Positions 23,909-32,914 of a stretch of DNA of 64,000 nt are shown in pieces (positions within the stretch are counted from its first letter, which is position 1; each line of letters starts with the position of its first letter). The position numbers were made by a program, and so were the translations under genes. A model generated the notes under the pieces. That model was given only the letters and a program-made list of their open reading frames with translations. It was not told the origin of the DNA and did not search any database. The stretch comes from a phage: the sequence record PZ445536.1, one strand, 5' to 3'.

Positions 23909-25885
23909 CTACATTTTGAACTTTTTAGACATTCCGTTGATGTTAACCAAAGAAGCCAAGATTTGAGAAACTTCGTTTTCCTCTTCTTTTGATTCTTCTA
24001 CAAGGAATTGATTAAATCCAGCCATTGGACGAACTTCACCAGTTTCCATTAAATGGTCGCCATCATATACTGATTCTTCTAATTGTTCAGAAGGAGGAAC
24101 GATTGTACCTTCGATTAGATACTTGTTATAAGCAGTTTCTTTCATAAAGTACGTACTTACTTTATTAATCTTCAGTAAAATTCCACGCGGTAGAATAACT
24201 TCAGCTTCTGATGGAAATCCTGATAAATGACCTGGAACGATAACTTTGATTCGCTCAGCTCCTTTAATTACCATACCCACGCTAGTTTCAGCATCTTCAT
24301 TGGCATATGTAGAATGACTACCCATATGCATCAAATCTTCTGCATCAACAGAACCTTCTCCTTCGCCAGAAAATACTGCGCCGGAATCATCTAGAGCCAT
24401 ATAGTTTTTACCATGCTCACCGAAGATATTTGGTTTAAGCGATGTAGATACGAAGTTCTTGAAATAGAACATTTTGTTTTCAATGTTATGACGCAAAGTT
24501 TTAAAGGTAACTTCTTGTCCACGATAAAGCGTAGTTCCTGGAGGAAGAACTGAACCTTTAGCGAATGCAGAATCTAACGTCTCGATGTGCTTAATAGCTC
24601 GTTCCATATATTCTTCACGGGTAGAATCTGGTTTACCCAAAAGGAACGAGTTCATTTCAACATATGAATCTGCACAATAATCTTCAATTACATCAGATTC
24701 AGCTTGGGTTAATCCTTTTGGAGTTACTTCGGTGCTTGTGTATTCATATGCCTGAGCAGCAGATTCATTAATCAATTTATAAATGCCATTCATTACAAAT
24801 TGAATAATAGCTGTCTTTTCATCTGATGTAGCTTTAGAACCTTTAACTAAATCATTGATAATTTTCTTAATAACATCAAAGCTATTAGAAATATTAATGT
24901 CAGCAAGATCGCTTAAAATTTTATCAGTTTTATAATCAAAGAATTCTTTATTCTTTAAATATTCTTGAGAACCTTGATATGTTATATCGCTCTGCAGCTT
25001 GATAGATGGATCGCGTAAACGTGCATGGGCTAATGCAATATGATTTCGGAAGTTTTCTAGTTCATAATCATTAGATTTAAAACGAGAAGCACTTCTCATA
25101 CCACCGATAGCTCCTTTGCTGAAGTTTGAACCAATCTGGATAACGCCAGAGTTCATTGGTCCTTCTGCTTTATATACCGGAACTTTAGATTCAAACTCTT
25201 GATATTTCTTGGCAGCGAAGCTATCACCCTGAAGTGAAGCATCAACAGTAGAATATTGAGCTTGTGCTGCTAATCGACGACTAATTTTAGTTTTCTGAAT
25301 AACAGCTTGATCAGTGCGCTTATCATTTTCTAAAGCAATAGAAGCAGCAACAGCGACAGCTTTAGGAACAGCATTACCTGTTTTAACGTCTACATAAACA
25401 TCACCAACCTTTGATTCAACTTTTGTGAATAACTCAGTTGAAATAGGAGGTACACCTGGAATGTCTTCTAAATTGGCATTTTTACGGTAAACCATAATAT
25501 ATGCATACTTTTTATCATAGTCCCAGATTTCCTTTAAAAGAACATATCGACCTGCTCCTTTAGTACGTACTAAACGGTCAGCAATAACTTGTATTTGACG
25601 AGCAGCGCCATTTGTTTTACTTTTTAGTACGCGGAATAGGCATGCGTCAATTTTATACTGTTTCATTGTTTGAAGAGCAGTATCAAAAACAGCATTAATG
25701 ACGCCAATTGGATTTCCACCCAAGTTTCTAAGCTTAACTAGTGATAATTTCTCGTTGACACCTATCATTACGATATGCATCATTTTATCGCCCGGCTTAA
25801 CGTTTTTATTCGTATCACCGCCAGAGGTGTATGTACAAAAATCTAAATCCAGGAAGCACGCTTTCTTCACCGGCTTGAATAGCAA
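23909..25885 (-). CDS. Alt-like ADP-ribosyltransferase paralog, main ORF (N-terminal 50 codons lie in another frame); possibly frameshifted or a pseudogene
   Basis: 658-aa ORF begins at a TTG with no RBS; shares the conserved N-terminal domain and ART motifs (YRGQ, FVSTSL, EAEVILPRG) with the adjacent alt gene. Confidence 0.7.
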   Translation of the reverse strand: MLFKPVKKACFLDLDFCTYTSGGDTNKNVKPGDKMMHIVMIGVNEKLSLVKLRNLGGNPIGVINAVFDTALQTMKQYKIDACLFRVLKSKTNGAARQIQVIADRLVRTKGAGRYVLLKEIWDYDKKYAYIMVYRKNANLEDIPGVPPISTELFTKVESKVGDVYVDVKTGNAVPKAVAVAASIALENDKRTDQAVIQKTKISRRLAAQAQYSTVDASLQGDSFAAKKYQEFESKVPVYKAEGPMNSGVIQIGSNFSKGAIGGMRSASRFKSNDYELENFRNHIALAHARLRDPSIKLQSDITYQGSQEYLKNKEFFDYKTDKILSDLADINISNSFDVIKKIINDLVKGSKATSDEKTAIIQFVMNGIYKLINESAAQAYEYTSTEVTPKGLTQAESDVIEDYCADSYVEMNSFLLGKPDSTREEYMERAIKHIETLDSAFAKGSVLPPGTTLYRGQEVTFKTLRHNIENKMFYFKNFVSTSLKPNIFGEHGKNYMALDDSGAVFSGEGEGSVDAEDLMHMGSHSTYANEDAETSVGMVIKGAERIKVIVPGHLSGFPSEAEVILPRGILLKINKVSTYFMKETAYNKYLIEGTIVPPSEQLEESVYDGDHLMETGEVRPMAGFNQFLVEESKEEENEVSQILASLVNINGMSKKFKM

Positions 25886-25970: not shown

Positions 25971-28061
25971 TTATCCTTGAACGAACTTGTAAGGCATGTT
26001 TGCAATATCTATGCAAGACACAATAATTCCAAGAGATGATTCTACTTTCTGTTTAACATTTGATGAAACAAATGATGCAAAGTCAACTCTATCTTCTATA
26101 TCACCTGTCATTGCAACTACTTCGCCGGTTTCCATTAAACGGTCTCCGTCATAGATTACCGATTCGGTGAGTTCTTCGGTGGTCATAACTTCAGCTTGAA
26201 TGAGTTTTGTATTATTAGACGTGGTTCCGTCATTATTAGAAGCATCAGTTATTTTATTAACTTTGACCATCAATCCACGCGGTAGAATAACTTCAGCTTC
26301 TGTTGCTATTCCTAGACTTCCTGGATATACAACATTAACTTTATGAGCTCCATCAATTGCCCATCCTATTTGAACTTTAACGTATTCAGGATTTTCTTTA
26401 TACGCTCTTATTTCGTTTGGATTAATAGTTATTCCTTCTTCATTTTTATCAACTGTCAATTCATTACGAGCTTCTGGTTCTAAAAGACCAATACCAGCAT
26501 GTGTAATTCCAAAACGCCCAAAAATGATAGGAGTTAAAGAAGTAGATACAAAATTTCTGAAATAGAACACTTTATTTTTAACTAGTGCTTCGTATATAGG
26601 AGCAGTCATACTTTGTGCACGATAAACTGTAATGCCTTCCGGTATACGGTCACCATTTTCAAAAGCTGAATCTAAGTTATTTATAGCAGATTCAATTTCT
26701 TTTTCACTCATTACATCATATCGTTCTGGATTGTAGCGTCCTAAAAGAAGATTATTGATGTCAGTATATCCTGAACCACAATACTCTCTAATGCCGCGCT
26801 TTTGTGATGGAGTATATTTAGAACCATCACGGGCAATAGTAATATCAATCATTGGACCTGCACCAATTCCAGAAAAGCTATAAATCATTCGTTTGAGGAA
26901 TTTAGTTTTTGCTGCGTTCCAGGAATTTTTAGTTATTTCTTCCCAGACTTCATCTGGCTGTCCTTTACGGGTTTTATTATGTTTATCAAGCCAAGTATCT
27001 TTATATTCTTCAAAGAATTTATTAATAGCTGCTGCATACTTCTCTAAACATTTTATTGAAGTAGTTGGTTCATTTTTGATCGCATTAAGAATTACATCTT
27101 TAATTTTTTCAGAAACTTCATTAACCTCACTTTTTGAAAAGAATTTATAATCATAGTGAAGTTCATCTGCAGTTCCTTCGGCAATAATTTTTGCTGCCTT
27201 AGTTTTAGAAGCCAATGAATTAATTCCAAGTTTCATTTCTTCTGCTTCGGGAATTAAAGGAGCGGTAGCAGGTTTATTGAAATTAGCTGCGGTAGATTCA
27301 TACTTCTGGAATAATTCACTTTCAAATCTAGAAGATTCCAATGATTGACTTTGCGCAATTGCTCTACGGGAAATTTTAACTTTAACGATTACAGCTTGGT
27401 CAGAACGTTTATCATTTTCTTGTGCAATAGATGCTGCAATTGCCTCATTTTTAGTTACTTGAGCTCCAGTATCTTTATTGATATAAACATCGCCGACTTT
27501 CGATTCAACTTTAGTAAAGAGCTCGGTACTAATTTCCGGAACTCCTGGAATGTCTTCTAGTGATACATTTTTGCGATGTATAAGAATATATGCATACTTT
27601 TTATCATAATCCCAGAGTTCCTTAAGAAGGACGTATCTGCCACCTGAACGACTACGGATAAGTCTATCAGCAATAACTTGAATTTGTCGAGCTTGACCAG
27701 CGGTTTTAGACTTAAGAATACGAAGCATACAAGCATCAATTTTATACTGACGCATTGTTTGCATTGCAACAGTAAAAACTGAATTGATATAATTAATTGG
27801 GCTTGGACCAAGACCTTTTAATTTAGCAATTGAACCTTTAGCAGTTAATGTAAAAGGAACAATATGCATCATTTTATCGCCCATCTTTAAATCGCGATTA
27901 GTATCACCTCCAGATGTATAGGTGCATAAACGAAAGCCTGGTTGTTCAATTGCATCATCAACACGAACTGAAAAAATTTGTGGTATTTTCTTCTTTGGAT
28001 TTAAGTTTGTAATCGGAAGAGTAGTATCTTCGTCAAATAATTCTGTAATAAGTTCCATCAT
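25971..28061 (-). CDS. alt: Alt, capsid-packaged RNA polymerase ADP-ribosyltransferase
   Basis: N-terminus (M)MELITELFDEDTTLPITNL; ART triad R (VYRAQ), S-T-S (FVSTSL), E-x-E (EAEVILPRG); true start may be the second Met. Confidence 0.88.
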   Translation of the reverse strand: MMELITELFDEDTTLPITNLNPKKKIPQIFSVRVDDAIEQPGFRLCTYTSGGDTNRDLKMGDKMMHIVPFTLTAKGSIAKLKGLGPSPINYINSVFTVAMQTMRQYKIDACMLRILKSKTAGQARQIQVIADRLIRSRSGGRYVLLKELWDYDKKYAYILIHRKNVSLEDIPGVPEISTELFTKVESKVGDVYINKDTGAQVTKNEAIAASIAQENDKRSDQAVIVKVKISRRAIAQSQSLESSRFESELFQKYESTAANFNKPATAPLIPEAEEMKLGINSLASKTKAAKIIAEGTADELHYDYKFFSKSEVNEVSEKIKDVILNAIKNEPTTSIKCLEKYAAAINKFFEEYKDTWLDKHNKTRKGQPDEVWEEITKNSWNAAKTKFLKRMIYSFSGIGAGPMIDITIARDGSKYTPSQKRGIREYCGSGYTDINNLLLGRYNPERYDVMSEKEIESAINNLDSAFENGDRIPEGITVYRAQSMTAPIYEALVKNKVFYFRNFVSTSLTPIIFGRFGITHAGIGLLEPEARNELTVDKNEEGITINPNEIRAYKENPEYVKVQIGWAIDGAHKVNVVYPGSLGIATEAEVILPRGLMVKVNKITDASNNDGTTSNNTKLIQAEVMTTEELTESVIYDGDRLMETGEVVAMTGDIEDRVDFASFVSSNVKQKVESSLGIIVSCIDIANMPYKFVQG

Positions 28062-28081
28062 AGCCTCTCTAGTGTTTATTC

Positions 28082-28089
28082 TATTTATA
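28082..28089 (-). promoter_or_regulatory. late promoter TATAAATA (minus strand) upstream of alt
   Basis: + strand TATTTATA, i.e. TATAAATA on the - strand, about 20 nt upstream of the alt ATG with GAGAGG RBS in between. Confidence 0.6.
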
Positions 28090-28094
28090 AAATT

Positions 28095-28112
28095 AAAGGC
28101 CCGAAGGCCTTT
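28095..28112 (-). terminator. hairpin AAAGGCC-CGAA-GGCCUUU between the 62-aa ORF and alt
   Basis: 7-bp stem with 4-nt loop. Confidence 0.5.
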
Positions 28113-28299
28113 AATAATCTAGTGGTAAGAGAGTACGATATATTTCAAACTTTGGTCCTTTTTCATAGGCATCAAATGTTTCTGTAAATTTATTATAAGC
28201 GTATGCATCTACAAATTCGAGAATGACTTGTGATACAGAAGTAGAAACATCTCCACCTTCTTTTTGAGCAATGACAATTGTTTCTAAGTAAGCTTTCAT
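28111..28299 (-). CDS. hypothetical protein (62 aa)
   Basis: ATGA start/stop overlap with the ligase gene. Confidence 0.6.
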   Translation of the reverse strand: MKAYLETIVIAQKEGGDVSTSVSQVILEFVDAYAYNKFTETFDAYEKGPKFEIYRTLLPLDY

Positions 28300-29759
28300 A
28301 GACCAGTTACCTCATGAAAATCACCAAATACATCCTCGAATGTATTAGCTTTAGTTTTATCTTCACGTAAACGAATCGCAATCGGAAGAAATAATTTAAC
28401 GTAATCAGTGCGGCCATCAGATTTTAACCAACCGTTGCATTCGCACTCTAGAATTTTTCCAATATAATAATTTTGGTTTTCCATAATGCGAGTACGGTCA
28501 AGTTCATGCGATTTTACACCGGCTTTATCTTTTAAGCCTGAACCAGCATTTACCTTAATTTTTCCACACTCTGACTCAAGAATAAATCCACCTGCTTTAG
28601 TAGGGTCTTTACGGTGAGGATAAATTCCTACAATTTTTAAATCAACATCAATTACTTCTTTAAATTTATAAAGATTTTTTGAACGAGCATTTTCCCATAA
28701 TCCATCGATATTTTTGAGAATAATACCTTCAAGACCTTGGTCAATATATTTTTTATAAATTACCTTAGCTTCATTTAGGTTATTTACTACCTGGTTTTCA
28801 ATTAAAATTACTTTATCATAGCCTGATGTCATTTGTTCTAGTTTAGAAAAACGTACATCATATTTCAAACGAAATGCAGGAAGACCGTATATTTCTACCA
28901 ACGGAACATAATCCCAGACCTGAAACTTCATGCATTGTGCTTCTTTTTCTGAAATAGTTCCCTTTAAAGATTTATTAGCGATTCCATTAGAAGTAGTACG
29001 TGATTCAGCTACTTCAGCAAACTCTTTAGCTTTACTAATTTCAGGATAAGCATCAAAAAGAAAATCTAGGCCTTCTGGCTCCTTTTTAACTTGCTCATGG
29101 TATACCAATTCGCCATCAATTAACACACCTTCTGGATGAATCTGGCGGGCTTCAGCGGTCATTTTGATTAACTCTTCCTTAAGAAGATCTAATCCTAGAT
29201 ATTCATTACCAGCTCGTGATAAAAGACGGACATCATCTAATTCATCACCTCTAACTTCAGCAAAACACCGAGCTCCATCTGCTTTTAATTGTGCAAAGGC
29301 TGGAAATTTGATATTCTTACTAATGCCTTTTTCATCATAAGAACTTGCGAGCATTTGAGGTTGTTCAGGAATTAAACCTGGCCAAACTTTGTTTGCAATA
29401 GATACTGAAGCACCACATTCAAGGTCTCGCATCATCACTCGACGCAAAACTTCAACATCATCTTTTTTACCGTCAGTAATATAACCTACTAATTCCTCAA
29501 TTGCCGCATTTCCAGTCAATTTCCGAGTAGCTAATGTAAATTCAATGAAGTCAAGCATATCGGTAAGAGTCAACATTCCAAAACTCTGGGTAGCAATACC
29601 AGGTTTAGGCCATTTCTTGATATAATACTGCAACCCACGAGAATAAGTCAGACGATATACTCGTTTAAGCAATTCATTATCTTTATTCTTTTCAAGAATT
29701 GCTTGCTTCTGCTTAGTTGAACCAATAGATGCTATTTCGTTCAGAATTTTAAGAATCAT
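28296..29759 (-). CDS. 30: ATP-dependent DNA ligase (gp30-like), 487 aa
   Basis: 487 aa; N-terminus MILKILNEIASIGSTKQKQAILEKNKDNELLKRVY; adenylylation motif KADGAR. Confidence 0.93.
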   Translation of the reverse strand: MILKILNEIASIGSTKQKQAILEKNKDNELLKRVYRLTYSRGLQYYIKKWPKPGIATQSFGMLTLTDMLDFIEFTLATRKLTGNAAIEELVGYITDGKKDDVEVLRRVMMRDLECGASVSIANKVWPGLIPEQPQMLASSYDEKGISKNIKFPAFAQLKADGARCFAEVRGDELDDVRLLSRAGNEYLGLDLLKEELIKMTAEARQIHPEGVLIDGELVYHEQVKKEPEGLDFLFDAYPEISKAKEFAEVAESRTTSNGIANKSLKGTISEKEAQCMKFQVWDYVPLVEIYGLPAFRLKYDVRFSKLEQMTSGYDKVILIENQVVNNLNEAKVIYKKYIDQGLEGIILKNIDGLWENARSKNLYKFKEVIDVDLKIVGIYPHRKDPTKAGGFILESECGKIKVNAGSGLKDKAGVKSHELDRTRIMENQNYYIGKILECECNGWLKSDGRTDYVKLFLPIAIRLREDKTKANTFEDVFGDFHEVTGL

Positions 29760-30025
29760 TGTTCATCCTTTAGAGTTTGGTTTACAGCTCTATTATAAAT
29801 CAATTCATCATTAAGCTCAGTCAAAGACCTATGATATGTGGTTCTAACTTTATTTCCTTGCATCCAGTGCTTGACGTAAATGAAACCTTGCTCTACACAT
29901 TTTTTAAAAATTCGTTCGTCTTTTTGAGCTCGGAATTCTGGATTGCATCTAAAAAATTGATTTACGTGACCGTAATCACGTGTAGTATTACCTTCATTTT
30001 CATAAATAGTATGAACGACAAACAT
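29756..30025 (-). CDS. hypothetical protein (89 aa; 30.1-like)
   Basis: tight operon array, 4-nt overlap with gene 30. Confidence 0.65.
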   Translation of the reverse strand: MFVVHTIYENEGNTTRDYGHVNQFFRCNPEFRAQKDERIFKKCVEQGFIYVKHWMQGNKVRTTYHRSLTELNDELIYNRAVNQTLKDEQ

Positions 30026-30861
30026 TAGAATGCTCCTTGGAAAATATTATCACCACTAGTAGGTCTATTATACAAATACTCTATGCCACCGGGTTTAATA
30101 TAATTCCATGTCTGAAACGGATGTGTATAATATGGATGATATGGATTATAAGGATTAAATCCAGGAGTTCTCCAGGTAGTATTCCAACGAAAAGAATCGT
30201 TTTTAATCATCTTCTCGATTGCATCTTTTATAGCTTTTTCACGATCAAAACTTTCTTTATTTTCCTTCGGTGGAAAAAGCTTATTCTCTACATCATTCCA
30301 TGTATAAACTCGCTGTGCAGTTTTTGGAATACTGTCACGCTCTCCTCGAGCCATCCAATAAACTGGAACATTTAATATTTCACTCGCATGATCGCAGTGG
30401 TGAGCGAGATCGTCAATATAACAAATTACATTATATTTCTCTTTTGCCTTTTTGAACAACTCTTCTTTTGAAGAATCATGACCACACATCATTACTTCTG
30501 AGAAGGCACCAGGAAAAAGAGCATTCAAATTAAATTGACGATTCAGCAGAGCGTCAATAGAATCACCCAATGCTGTAACAGCTACAAAATTATAATCTTC
30601 TTTTAATTTGTTAATTACGCACAGAGCATCTTTATATGGAGACAAGTAACGAATAAAATCTGAACGATTGTATTTTTCAATTAACTTGACGCCAAGTTCT
30701 TCATCACAATTAAAGAGTTTACCTGGAGAAATAAATTTCTCATCTTGGATCATTTTTAAAATATGTTCCAACGGAAGATTATATTTCTGAGCAAAATAAG
30801 GAAGACCTGATTGCCAGCTTAAACATACTCCATCAATATCAGTTAAAATAGTAGGCTTCAT
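30025..30861 (-). CDS. HAD-superfamily phosphatase-like protein (278 aa; 30.2-like)
   Basis: N-terminal HAD motif I ILTDIDGV. Confidence 0.65.
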   Translation of the reverse strand: MKPTILTDIDGVCLSWQSGLPYFAQKYNLPLEHILKMIQDEKFISPGKLFNCDEELGVKLIEKYNRSDFIRYLSPYKDALCVINKLKEDYNFVAVTALGDSIDALLNRQFNLNALFPGAFSEVMMCGHDSSKEELFKKAKEKYNVICYIDDLAHHCDHASEILNVPVYWMARGERDSIPKTAQRVYTWNDVENKLFPPKENKESFDREKAIKDAIEKMIKNDSFRWNTTWRTPGFNPYNPYHPYYTHPFQTWNYIKPGGIEYLYNRPTSGDNIFQGAF

Positions 30862-31322
30862 AAAGAGTCTCTTAATAAGTTTAACACATCAATAAATTCA
30901 GCTTCGGTTAGTATTGTATCATCTTTTGTTAGACCACTAGCCATGCTGTGCTTCAAAACTTTTCCTTTCGAGGCTTGTAATGCATCACGAAAGCCCTTGT
31001 TTTGGATCGCTGCTTCAAAATATGCATTTGTGTATAATTCTTTCCACGCCGGGGAGTATCTTGAAAACGGAACTCCAATCCAGAAGAGGGTCCCACGGTC
31101 CTGAGCTCTAGCATAAGACCTTCCAGCTTGTTGGGCGGCAAGCCCGGATAACCCAAATATACGACGTTGTTGTTCAACATTTTTCACCTTACACCCTTGG
31201 AGGAATCCTTCAAGACCTCCAAATTGAATACCATCCATAACGAAAGGCCATTGGGCGAAATTACTTAATGCACATGATGGCCACCTAAAATTGCTTCTAA
31301 TCTCTAACTCAGACATTTTCAA
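30858..31322 (-). CDS. NADAR (YbiA-like) domain protein (154 aa; 30.3-like)
   Basis: NADAR-type signature SNFRWPSCALSNFAQWPFVMDGIQFGGLEGFLQGCKVK. Confidence 0.65.
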   Translation of the reverse strand: MKMSELEIRSNFRWPSCALSNFAQWPFVMDGIQFGGLEGFLQGCKVKNVEQQRRIFGLSGLAAQQAGRSYARAQDRGTLFWIGVPFSRYSPAWKELYTNAYFEAAIQNKGFRDALQASKGKVLKHSMASGLTKDDTILTEAEFIDVLNLLRDSL

Positions 31323-31515
31323 TGCTTATAATTTCAACATCAGCCCAATGACCATAGCAAGGAAGACGAAATTCAACTGGCCAGTTAGGGTCCTTTTCTA
31401 ATATAATAGACTTAACTTGTGGTTCTTCATGTTCATCAGTATATGGATTTTTATCTGTTACTTTATATGTGACCTTAATGTACTGAATTCCAAAAATCTT
31501 ATTAATTATATTCAT
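31309..31515 (-). CDS. hypothetical protein (68 aa)
   Basis: minus-strand ORF in 30.x array. Confidence 0.55.
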   Translation of the reverse strand: MNIINKIFGIQYIKVTYKVTDKNPYTDEHEEPQVKSIILEKDPNWPVEFRLPCYGHWADVEIISIENV

Positions 31516-31709
31516 ACTAGTTCCTTTAATCCGTAAATAGGAGATAATTCATCACCCATACGAAGGTCTTCATTTCCATCTACCCAGGAAACAATATAAG
31601 CCTCTTTTATTTGAACACCACTCCATTTAAATGGAGGTAGAACCTTAGAAATTAATCCAGGTATACCAACTCCCTTTAATTCAACAGTTTGACCTAAAAA
31701 GAATTTCAT
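31512..31709 (-). CDS. hypothetical protein (65 aa)
   Basis: minus-strand ORF in 30.x array. Confidence 0.55.
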   Translation of the reverse strand: MKFFLGQTVELKGVGIPGLISKVLPPFKWSGVQIKEAYIVSWVDGNEDLRMGDELSPIYGLKELV

Positions 31710-31996
31710 TAGAACCTCATCTGAAAACCATGCGATTTAACATTACCACCACCAATATCAGAGATATTAATTTCGCGCGCAATTGAAGGGTCAATGTCAA
31801 TTTCGCGATTGAGTTTAGTGATAGCTAAAGTATCACGCCCATTTACTGTACGGAATTCTAAAGGACAAACCACATCAACGTAATTTTTAATCGATTCACT
31901 GGTAGGCTGCAAATGAGCAGGAAGGTCTTTAGGCGCCTTTGAGAAAACAACTTCACAGAAATTTTTGCGGGTATCAAAATAAGTAGTCATAAACAT
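31709..31996 (-). CDS. hypothetical protein (95 aa)
   Basis: ATG with GAGGAAAA RBS. Confidence 0.6.
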   Translation of the reverse strand: MFMTTYFDTRKNFCEVVFSKAPKDLPAHLQPTSESIKNYVDVVCPLEFRTVNGRDTLAITKLNREIDIDPSIAREINISDIGGGNVKSHGFQMRF

Positions 31997-32013
31997 AATA
32001 TTTTCCTCAGTAA

Positions 32014-32027
32014 GGGGCCGAAGCCCC
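32014..32027 (-). other. intercistronic GC hairpin GGGGC-CGAA-GCCCC
   Basis: stable hairpin between two minus-strand ORFs with no downstream U-tract on the transcribed strand; likely an RNA stability or processing element, not a terminator. Confidence 0.5.
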
Positions 32028-32037
32028 TCATTTTATT

Positions 32038-32403
32038 TTAAATATCAAATTCGTTAAGAACTACATCAAAGATTGCTTCAAGATGCTCAGGTTTAGCTCT
32101 GTTACTCAGAATATGACGAATCCAAGTTTTAACTAAAAGCTTGCGATTAGCACCATTCCAGCAAGGATGAGTCCCTAAATCGCGTTGACGGAAATCATCA
32201 TCTAATGCGATTTTGAAGTTGGAACCTTCCATCGTGATGGAAACTGTAATACCATTTTCAAATCGCATATAAACGTAGTTAGGAGTCATATACTGTTCAA
32301 TTTCGCATACTGATCCATTTTGATGTTTCCAAAGGCAGATGGTATCAATAGAACCTGCAATACCATTAGAAACATATTTACGTTCAAAGTTGATGTAGTT
32401 CAT
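32038..32403 (-). CDS. hypothetical protein (121 aa)
   Basis: minus-strand ORF with GGAGA RBS. Confidence 0.6.
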   Translation of the reverse strand: MNYINFERKYVSNGIAGSIDTICLWKHQNGSVCEIEQYMTPNYVYMRFENGITVSITMEGSNFKIALDDDFRQRDLGTHPCWNGANRKLLVKTWIRHILSNRAKPEHLEAIFDVVLNEFDI

Positions 32404-32429
32404 TTTTATTCTCCGAGATGTTTAATTGT

Positions 32430-32469
32430 GGTACAGGTATATAATATCATGTCCTGTACCAAAGTAAAC
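32430..32469 (-). promoter_or_regulatory. PeSL-like early promoter / stem-loop cassette
   Basis: - strand GTTTAC, 17 nt, TATTAT; perfect 8-bp inverted repeat GGTACAGG/CCTGTACC brackets the -10. Confidence 0.55.
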
Positions 32470-32471
32470 AA

Positions 32472-32804
32472 TTATTTTACTACTTTCCAATGCTTCATGT
32501 CAAGTTTACCAACTTTTTTCATCTTCTCAATTAAGCGTTCGGCACGTTGGCGAGCTGTAACATAATGCCATTCGCCTAATTCATTTTGTTCAATTTTTCC
32601 AACGATTACTGTATTCAATTCATAAATCCAACCAGTAAAGAAATTATGAACTTGAATTGTAAAGGTGAAATCTGTTCCCATACCTTCTGTTGTTTCTACT
32701 TCAATAATATCACCTTCAACTGCCATTAAGAACCACATAGTTTCATCATATTTACCATTGAAGCATTTAGTTTTAACTGCAGCGTTCAGATTAATCGTTT
32801 TCAT
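32472..32804 (-). CDS. hypothetical protein (110 aa)
   Basis: minus-strand ORF. Confidence 0.6.
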   Translation of the reverse strand: MKTINLNAAVKTKCFNGKYDETMWFLMAVEGDIIEVETTEGMGTDFTFTIQVHNFFTGWIYELNTVIVGKIEQNELGEWHYVTARQRAERLIEKMKKVGKLDMKHWKVVK

Positions 32805-32877: not shown

Positions 32878-32910
32878 TGGAAAATAAAAAAGGACTCCCG
32901 AAGGAGTCCT
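32878..32910 (-). terminator. intrinsic terminator (AGGACUCC-CGAA-GGAGUCCU then U-tract on - strand)
   Basis: 8-bp stem; - strand continues UUUUUAUUUU. Confidence 0.7.
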
Positions 32911-32914
32911 CAAC

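Follow-up and report, generated by a model that had tools for sequence, protein, structure and literature searches.

The locus at 30025..31322 raises the question of whether a NADAR-type protein and a HAD-like phosphatase, encoded side by side next to a DNA ligase gene, act together or are neighbours only. An earlier note on this DNA had proposed that the three proteins could form a DNA-damage-reversal or anti-defence module. The window, by which we mean the whole stretch of 64,000 nt that was analysed, comes from a Tequatrovirus (T4-like phage; 97.8% DNA identity to Tequatrovirus genomes), and its gene order is that of T4. The identity of each protein, its gene neighbourhood and published genetic data on T4 are considered here.

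Gene order and transcription around 30.3 and 30.2

Both predicted open reading frames are present on the minus strand and correspond to genes 30.3 and 30.2. The features relevant to the locus are as follows:

28296..29759, minus strand: gene 30, ATP-dependent DNA ligase, 487 aa (Pfam PF01068, E = 3.8e-32; phrog_114)
29756..30025, minus strand: gene 30.1, DUF3045, 89 aa, between 30.2 and the ligase gene (Pfam PF11243, E = 2.9e-64)
30025..30861, minus strand: gene 30.2, HAD phosphatase, 278 aa (268/278 residues identical to T4 gp30.2)
30858..31316, minus strand: gene 30.3 (adfN), NADAR fold, 152 aa (PF08010; 150/152 residues identical to T4)
31309..31515, minus strand: gene 30.4, 68 aa (8-nt overlap of its stop with the adfN start)
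32474..32503, minus strand: best sigma-70-like promoter match, upstream of 30.7 (TTGACA, 18-nt spacer, TAAAAT; 11/12; consensus scan only)

The two genes had been placed immediately downstream of the ligase gene. In the direction of transcription both are located upstream of it, with 30.1 in between. The genes from 30.4 to the ligase gene are contiguous on one strand and have overlapping stop and start codons. Overlaps of the ATGA type and tight packing are the norm among T4 early genes.

The reading frame originally assigned to 30.3 (30858..31322) opens with a TTG at 31322. Translation of adfN almost certainly begins instead at the ATG at 31316, since the resulting product of 152 aa is collinear with T4 gp30.3 and since this start overlaps the 30.4 stop by 8 nt. 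No Shine-Dalgarno sequence of its own was identified for adfN, which, taken together with the overlap, indicates that 30.4 and adfN are probably translationally coupled. The genes 30.4, 30.3, 30.2, 30.1, 30, and alt.1 would accordingly be read as one translationally coupled string of early genes. Judged from sequence, the promoter match at 32474..32503 is likely the start of a transcription unit extending from 30.7 to alt.1; the numbers of promoter-like and terminator-like sites in the scan were not above those in shuffled sequence. No terminator-like sites were found by the sequence scan between 30.6 and alt.

gp30.3 is a NADAR-fold protein of the AdfN branch

gp30.3 matched the Pfam family Phage_30_3 (PF08010) at E = 4.3e-70 over model positions 1-138 of 138, while no direct match to NADAR (PF08719) was obtained at E <= 0.1. 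Direct sequence searches of gp30.3 and gp30.2 against the PDB returned only noise (E >= 1), and profiles were needed. The sequence profile of the gp30.3 family had a single PDB match, E. coli YbiA (2b3w; E = 0.0045), aligned on SNF...E...Q..K. The AF2 model of gp30.3 (pLDDT 92.9, pTM 0.88) has the NADAR alpha+beta fold with a helical core and small beta-hairpins at the flanks. Its only Foldseek matches in the PDB at a probability of at least 0.99 were solved NADARs, namely YbiA (2b3w), PnNADAR (8bau), and the G. lovleyi NADAR (8bat). The residues expected of a NADAR protein were located in an alignment of 46 gp30.3 homologues (A1):

31257..31265, minus strand: S18-N19-F20 motif (invariant in A1; aligns with SNF of YbiA)
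31209..31211, minus strand: E36, catalytic glutamate (invariant in A1)
31188..31190, minus strand: K43, phosphate-coordinating lysine (at least 90% conserved in A1)
30948..30950, minus strand: H123, last-strand residue (invariant in A1)

gp30.3 also has W23, D28-G29, and F32, so that the NADAR/YbiA-type signature initially noticed in the letters is present in full, as are E36, K43, and the phage-type H123. Q40 is likewise invariant in A1, and H123 sits in strand 120-122/123 of the model. E36 is equivalent to E43 of PnNADAR and E88 of the E. coli C7 NADAR, and the equivalents of K43, PnNADAR K50 and E. coli C7 K95, are essential (PMC11543638). The Glu and Lys are spaced seven residues apart, as in other NADARs. 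The phage gp30.3 branch carries His as its last-strand residue, members of the YbiA branch carry Glu, and NADARs linked to DarT1 carry Asp (PMC11125620, PMC11543638). The reading frame (459 nt) is full length, the C-terminal helix at residues 138-151 is intact, and the frameshift of the RB69 type, by which the last 15 residues are lost, is absent from adfN of the window. These results confirm gp30.3 as a NADAR-fold protein of the phage gp30.3/AdfN branch.

The anti-DarT function of gp30.3 is already known from published work on T4, where the protein was named AdfN (anti-DarT factor NADAR) by Johannesman et al. (Nat Commun 2025, PMC11825919). In vitro, T4 gp30.3 hydrolyses guanine-ADPr, not thymine-ADPr (Toxins 2024, PMC11125620). 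T4 and T2 without adfN fail to plate on DarTG1 hosts, plating of RB69 is restored by adfN alone in trans, and the E36A and K43A mutants of T4 AdfN are impaired (PMC11825919). In an independent data set, published T4 transposon sequencing, insertions in 30.3 were lost on DarTG1 (log2FC -7.25, adjusted p = 0). In uninfected cells T4 AdfN failed to neutralise DarT1, and its rescue of T5 and Bas25 was weak. The authors of that work inferred that full activity needs a further T-even cofactor, and the label 'stand-alone' may therefore be incomplete for AdfN.

T4 AdfN and gp30.3 of the window are equal in length, share E36, K43, H123, and a complete C-terminal helix, and are both encoded between 30.4 and 30.2. 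They differ only at two conservative, non-catalytic sites, I80 for L and M125 for I, and at position 125 most family members in A1 have M. From this likeness in sequence we infer that AdfN of the window acts like T4 AdfN. The guanine-ADP-ribose DNA hydrolase and anti-DarT role suggested in the earlier note would thus apply by analogy with the 99%-identical T4 protein, for which it has been published (PMC11125620, PMC11825919).

Among known NADARs, E. coli YbiA (2B3W), the founding NADAR/DUF1768 member, is the best structural match to AdfN (E = 4.4e-5, TM-score 0.70). In contrast to AdfN, with which it shares 18% identity, YbiA has a Glu as last-strand residue, acts on riboflavin intermediates as a housekeeping N-glycosidase, and does not protect against DarT1 in vivo. 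DarG1 (BC4488 branch; G. lovleyi 8BAT) and PnNADAR (8BAU) share with AdfN the NADAR fold (Foldseek probability 0.99-1.00), the seven-residue spacing of Glu and Lys, and guanine-ADPr hydrolase chemistry. However, sequence identity is only about 15%, and AdfN lacks the N-terminal extension of DarG1 and has a His in place of the catalytic Asp of DarG1 or the Glu of YbiA. Further, AdfN is not encoded beside a toxin and is no substitute for DarG1 in uninfected cells.

In the mechanism we propose, the host DarT1 toxin would attach ADP-ribose to guanine in single-stranded phage DNA. AdfN, as a stand-alone NADAR-fold N-glycosidase, would then cleave the bond between guanine N2 and ribose C1'' of the ADP-ribose adduct. 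E36 and H123 are predicted to flank the distal ribose while K43 would hold the diphosphate. The reaction would free ADP-ribose and give back normal guanine, so that replication could proceed in DarTG1-carrying hosts.

gp30.2 is a HAD-superfamily phosphatase

The neighbouring reading frame (30025..30861) starts MKPTILTDIDGV and contains the HAD motif I (DIDGV) to which the earlier note had drawn attention. Motifs II to IV were identified in addition, with conservation determined in an alignment of 44 gp30.2 homologues (A2):

30826..30840, minus strand: HAD motif I, D8-I-D10-G-V12, nucleophile Asp and acid/base Asp (D8, D10, and G11 invariant in A2)
30574-30576, minus strand: HAD motif II, T96 (at least 90% conserved in A2)
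30466-30468, minus strand: HAD motif III, K132 (invariant in A2)
30409..30414, minus strand: HAD motif IV, D150-D151 (at least 90% conserved in A2)

The second Asp of HAD motif I separates phosphotransferases from dehalogenases. In the structural model, residues 1-200 form a Rossmann-like HAD core (core pLDDT above 90) with a C1 helical cap at about residues 16-86. With all four motifs and the C1 cap, gp30.2 is a phosphatase of the HAD superfamily. The C-terminal tail (approximately residues 200-278) is disordered, varies among phages, and has a high content of aromatic residues, Pro, and Asn. A candidate sliding-clamp-binding motif in this tail (IEYLY) was dropped because the motif semi-conserved in the tail is a different one, [WY]xNx(0-1)P[RK]xT, and because the tail is absent from half of the homologues.

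Pfam and NCBIfam provided no usable name for gp30.2; the protein itself had no Pfam match even at E <= 1 and did not reach the threshold for NT5C (PF06941). Nine of the 44 homologues matched Pfam NT5C weakly (best 1.2e-4), and the sole PDB match of the family profile was mouse cdN (E = 0.022). The top Foldseek matches of the gp30.2 model were 5'(3')-deoxyribonucleotidases and a dNT-like protein (E = 5e-8 to 1e-7). Like gp30.2, cdN/mdN (Pfam NT5C PF06941; PDB 2JAO, 2I7D, 1Q92) and the dNT-like protein of S. epidermidis (3BWV) have a HAD core, the DxD motif, and a small helical C1 cap. The motif I context reads DIDGVCLSWQSGL in gp30.2 compared to NMDGVLADFESGL in the D12N variant of cdN. gp30.2 is thus predicted to be a nucleotidase-type phosphatase. 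It would be Mg-dependent, use the nucleophile of the DxD motif, and act on a substrate that is most likely small, phosphorylated, and nucleotide-like. A full-text literature search on gp30.2 found no paper, a broader one gave irrelevant matches only, and of the papers retrieved on deoxyribonucleotidases and T4-like phages none concerned gp30.2 by title or abstract.

Relationship between adfN, 30.2, and the ligase gene

Comparison of gene neighbourhoods demonstrated that the genomic link of 30.2 is to the ligase gene, not to adfN. In 22 of 26 gp30.2 lineages the ligase gene occurs within 700 bp downstream of 30.2 on the same strand, which makes it the most persistent neighbour, and across T4-like phages the stop and start codons of the pair often overlap. 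alt is found near 30.2 in 18/26 lineages and every other 30.x gene in at most 10/26. 30.3 lies within 1.5 kb in just 10/26, 30.1 adjoins 30.2 in 3/26 only, and in several Tevenvirinae genomes 30.2 and 30.3 are about 55-60 kb apart. As seen from adfN, 30.2 or the ligase gene is located within 10 kb in only 5 of 20 AdfN lineages. Among 80 viral loci encoding AdfN homologues, no conserved partner gene was observed outside the T4/RB69 group; the immediate neighbours of the homologues beyond this group were all different. At 50% identity the gp30.2 lineages all fall into a single family, and inherited synteny could therefore explain the pairing of 30.2 with the ligase gene. Visual inspection of the sequences around the most distant gp30.2 homologues (L070, L075, and L077) showed only neighbours of a generic kind, for replication and nucleotide metabolism.

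If the NADAR protein, the HAD phosphatase, and the ligase formed one unit, adduct removal by AdfN would be followed by processing of a phosphorylated by-product or DNA end by gp30.2 and by sealing of the strand by the ligase. The contiguity of the genes on one strand with overlapping codons fits this view, as do the persistent position of 30.2 next to the ligase gene and the reported need of AdfN for a T-even factor. However, tight packing of this kind is usual in T4 early genes, and the three components do not stay together across lineages. In addition, NADAR chemistry restores the base intact and leaves the strand unbroken, so that a phosphatase or ligase step is not chemically required. T4 insertions in 30.2 (71 TA sites) were neutral on DarTG1 (log2FC -0.12, p = 0.61, adjusted p = 1), in contrast to the loss of those in 30.3, and 30.1 gave a log2FC of -0.01. 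The ligase gene is essential in the same transposon sequencing (7/115 TA sites hit), and its role in DarT counter-defence is therefore not readable from these data. The module is thus largely refuted with regard to 30.2, and we consider it very improbable. The neutral 30.2 insertions also rule out gp30.2 as the T-even cofactor of AdfN. A main activity of gp30.3 on another substrate, such as intermediates of the riboflavin pathway (the case of YbiA) or soluble signals derived from ADP-ribose, or a reversal of the ADP-ribosylation introduced by Alt/Mod of the phage itself, might be suggested by the two Alt paralogues located 3-7 kb from its gene and by the lack of antitoxin function in uninfected cells. 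Against this, two independent laboratories obtained direct evidence that guanine-ADPr DNA is hydrolysed in vitro and that the gene is clearly required on DarTG1 hosts. Insertions in alt were neutral on DarTG1 (log2FC -0.01), so no functional link between AdfN and the Alt ADP-ribosyltransferases is seen. Further substrates may exist and are not needed to explain retention of the gene; a main activity on one of them appears quite unlikely.

The persistent pairing of 30.2 and the ligase gene would be explained if gp30.2 were a DNA-end 3'-phosphatase that prepares nicks for the adjacent ligase, similar to the HAD domain of polynucleotide kinase-phosphatase. HAD chemistry with a DxD motif fits such a role, and T4 Pnk and mammalian PNKP each have a 3'-phosphatase domain that belongs to the HAD enzymes. 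The model of gp30.2, however, has a helical C1 cap, which is typical of HAD phosphatases acting on small molecules, while those acting on macromolecules are usually capless. Its closest structures appear to be mononucleotidases, the sole match of its sequence profile is one, T4 already possesses the 3'-phosphatase of Pnk, and 30.2 is fully dispensable on K-12 (72/72 TA sites hit in the published T4 transposon sequencing). We regard a 3'-phosphatase as unlikely. A somewhat broader function, a ligase-coupled phosphatase that clears what hinders nick sealing, be it a blocked 3' end or a phosphorylated nucleotide, is a minor possibility. Insertions in 30.4 were mildly depleted on DarTG1 (log2FC -1.79, adjusted p = 0.014; published T4 transposon sequencing). 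Instead of reflecting a polar effect, this could mean that gp30.4 is the T-even factor needed by AdfN, which is a weaker possibility than that of a ligase-coupled gp30.2. Taken together, it is highly probable that 30.3 and 30.2 are two independent early genes of this T4-like phage, encoding AdfN and a separate HAD phosphatase, respectively.

With these results, gp30.2 is removed as a candidate for the T-even factor that potentiates AdfN. If the coupling of gp30.2 to the ligase is true, 30.2 and 30 would represent a two-gene functional pair that is so far uncharacterised. The T4-like phage of the window carries an intact copy of the published counter-defence gene adfN, which is no discovery in itself and is useful for host-range prediction: unlike RB69 with its truncated allele, this phage is predicted to resist DarTG1 hosts.

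Gene order and predicted transcription of the region

Over 28000-32500, the window shares 97.8% identity with Tequatrovirus genomes (e.g. Shigella phage SfPhi01), and this region matched 726 phage records; the window belongs to a T4-like phage. All genes of the region lie on the minus strand, in the order known from T4:

25971-28061, minus: alt
28111-28299, minus: alt.1
28296-29759, minus: 30 (DNA ligase)
29756-30025, minus: 30.1
30025-30861, minus: 30.2
30858-31316, minus: 30.3
31309-31515, minus: 30.4 (68 aa)
upstream of 30.4, minus: 30.5, 30.6 and 30.7

The products of the two ORFs that the earlier note had flagged as HAD-like and NADAR-type were identical to T4 proteins at 268/278 and 150/152 positions, respectively, identifying the ORFs as T4 genes 30.2 and 30.3 (the latter renamed adfN). 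A mechanical ORF list has 30.3 begin at a TTG (31322), but from the ATG at 31316 the product is the 152-aa protein of T4, and this start overlaps the stop codon of 30.4. The proposed position immediately downstream of the ligase gene holds in plus-strand coordinates only; transcriptionally, 30.3 and 30.2 are located upstream of ligase, with 30.1 intervening.

From 30.4 to alt.1, every junction is an ATGA or TAATG overlap, and a clear Shine-Dalgarno sequence is absent from adfN and 30.2, suggesting that this gene string is likely co-transcribed and translationally coupled. A sequence scan found no terminator-like site between 30.6 and alt. A putative near-consensus sigma-70 promoter (11/12 matches; 32474-32503, minus) occurs 5' of 30.7 and is itself preceded by a strong terminator of the hairpin-plus-T-run type (32890-32911, minus). 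As predicted from these two elements, an early transcription unit probably extends from 30.7 through ligase. The window also encodes tandem full-length Alt-type ADP-ribosyltransferase paralogues of 658 and 696 aa (23909-25885 and 25971-28061, minus), which share 40% identity, each with a match to PF03496. In T4, by contrast, the second alt copy has decayed to the fragments alt.-1 and alt.-2.

AdfN is a full-length NADAR protein

The 30.3 product (gp30.3, AdfN) matched the Pfam family Phage_30_3 (PF08010) with E = 4.3e-70. In an alignment of 46 homologues (34-86% identity), the invariant positions include S18, N19, F20, E36, G37, F38, Q40 and H123, with K43 conserved to at least 90%. The profile of this alignment reached E. 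coli YbiA (PDB 2b3w, E = 0.0045), aligning over SNF...E...Q..K. When the AlphaFold2 model built on the alignment (mean pLDDT 92.9) was compared to the PDB by Foldseek, only three entries had a probability of at least 0.99, the remainder being noise: YbiA, a Phytophthora NADAR with ADP-ribose (8bau), and the DarT1-associated NADAR of Geobacter lovleyi (8bat). The catalytic positions known from structural work, E36, K43 and H123, are all found in the window protein. E36/K43 correspond to E43/K50 of PnNADAR, the lysine following seven residues after the glutamate in both, whereas the residue in the last strand varies: YbiA has Glu, the antitoxin DarG1 has Asp and the phage proteins have His (H123). 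Thus, the profile HMM and structure prediction suggested in the earlier note both place gp30.3 among the NADARs, and its assignment of the ORF beginning at 30858 was correct.

The ADP-ribosyl-DNA hydrolase and anti-DarT role predicted for this ORF has already been demonstrated for the 99% identical T4 protein (PMC11125620, PMC11825919), so that its function is known in detail; neither lack of catalytic residues nor lack of hydrolase activity, named as counter-evidence, applies to the T4 protein. T4 gp30.3 hydrolyses guanine-linked, not thymine-linked, ADP-ribose on DNA (Toxins 2024, PMC11125620). The Methods of that study give the construct as 'residues 1-208', compared to 152 aa in NC_000866 and the window, which may reflect a tag, a typing error or an allele from another phage. 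T-even resistance to the DarTG1 defence system maps to the 3' part of 30.3, according to Johannesman et al. (Nat Commun 2025, PMC11825919), who gave the gene its new name, adfN. T4 or T2 without adfN did not plaque on DarTG1 hosts, adfN in trans restored RB69, E36A and K43A mutants were impaired, and purified AdfN removed ADP-ribose from DarT1-modified DNA (PMC11825919). RB69 is DarTG1-sensitive due to a frameshift that costs its 30.3 product the last 15 residues (PMC11825919); in contrast, the allele in the window has its full length and, with it, the C-terminal helix (138-151). In an independent transposon-sequencing preprint, 30.3 insertions were wholly lost on DarTG1 (10.1101/2025.11.20.689424).

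Within adfN, a putative 75-codon internal ORF occurs in the +1 frame (30953-31180, minus), annotated 30.3' in T4. Its 76-codon stop-to-stop frame is open in 12/13 T4/RB69-like loci examined (T4 included), to about 80% nucleotide identity; the ATG is not kept in every locus.

The 30.2 product is a predicted HAD phosphatase

The 30.2 product (gp30.2), a member of phrog_420, had no match in Pfam, and an NCBIfam search yielded nothing further. Across an alignment of 44 homologues, D8, D10 and G11 of motif I and K132 of motif III are invariant, and T96 (motif II) and D150-D151 (motif IV) are at least 90% conserved. Together with the HAD-like AlphaFold2 model, these four motifs corroborate the HAD-type call. 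A motif I with both aspartates indicates phosphoryl transfer, not dehalogenation. In the model, residues 1-200 have pLDDT above 90, the helices between strands 1 and 2 (residues 16-86) form a C1-type cap, and the chain is disordered past about residue 230. Foldseek ranked 5'(3')-deoxyribonucleotidases of mouse and human highest, alongside a staphylococcal dNT-like protein (E about 1e-7). In the PDB, the family profile reached mouse cdN alone (E = 0.022), and 9/44 homologues weakly matched Pfam NT5C. The best reading is a predicted small-molecule, nucleotide-type phosphatase, not firmly an NT5C member. A full-text literature search returned no paper mentioning gp30.2.

The C-terminal tail (residues 200-278; 30028-30264, minus) is predicted to be disordered, is rich in aromatic residues, Pro and Asn (WNTTWRTPGFNPYNPYHPYYTHPFQTWNY...), and is missing from about half of the homologues. 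Some tail-bearing homologues share the short motif [WY]xNx(0-1)P[RK]xT, and the tail may be a protein-interaction peptide.

Relationship of AdfN to its neighbours

The earlier note had proposed that NADAR, HAD protein and ligase form one module. NADAR hydrolysis restores guanine intact and leaves the strand unbroken (PMC11543638), making a phosphatase or ligase step unnecessary. For the effect of insertions in T4, the HIDEN-SEQ comparison 'Control vs DarTG1' was used (sheet S6 of Extended Data Table 6).

Effect of DarTG1 on T4 insertions (log2FC)
30.3: -7.25, adjusted p = 0
30.2 (71 TA sites): -0.12, p = 0.61
30.1: -0.01, not significant
alt: -0.01, not significant

Ligase, being essential, cannot be scored this way. 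On plain K-12, 30.2 carried insertions at 72/72 sites (published T4 transposon data).

In uninfected cells, T4 AdfN fails to neutralise DarT1, and its rescue of T5 and Bas25 is only weak; a further T-even factor was inferred by the authors (PMC11825919). As this factor, 30.2 is excluded by the transposon data, unless redundant. Although the preprint (10.1101/2025.11.20.689424) highlights 30.3 only, insertions in T4 30.4 also showed a mild depletion on DarTG1 (log2FC -1.79, adjusted p = 0.014). Since 30.4 ends 8 nt into adfN and the latter lacks its own ribosome-binding site, lost translational coupling to adfN is the simplest account of this depletion, and a likely one. That gp30.4 is a true cofactor, the T-even factor AdfN needs, is a long shot.

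Viral loci encoding a homologue of gp30.2 (77 loci) or of gp30.3 (80 loci) were collected, their neighbours were scored with HMMs, and lineages were dereplicated at 70% identity.

Neighbours of gp30.2 homologues
ligase, within 700 bp downstream: 22/26 lineages
alt, within 3.2 kb: 18/26 lineages
30.3, within 1.5 kb: 10/26 lineages

The HAD gene lies directly upstream of the ligase gene in 22/26 T4-like lineages (window 28296-30861; loci L002-L078), a pairing more persistent than that with any other 30.x neighbour. Where 30.1 is absent, stop and start codons of 30.2 and ligase often overlap, and one GenBank record labels the gp30.2 homologue P0180 'DNA ligase'. At 50% identity, the gp30.2 lineages all fall into a single family, so that inherited synteny could explain even the HAD-ligase pairing. 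In several Tevenvirinae genomes, 30.2 and 30.3 are about 55-60 kb apart. Within 10 kb of 30.3, ligase or 30.2 occurs in only 5/20 gp30.3 lineages, and AdfN homologues from outside the T4/RB69 group all have different flanking genes. Chemistry, T4 transposon data and comparative genomics all argue against one functional module, which is not supported despite the tight packing. The neighbourhood data point to the HAD and ligase genes, rather than the HAD and NADAR genes, as the stable pair, and to AdfN as a mobile, stand-alone gene.
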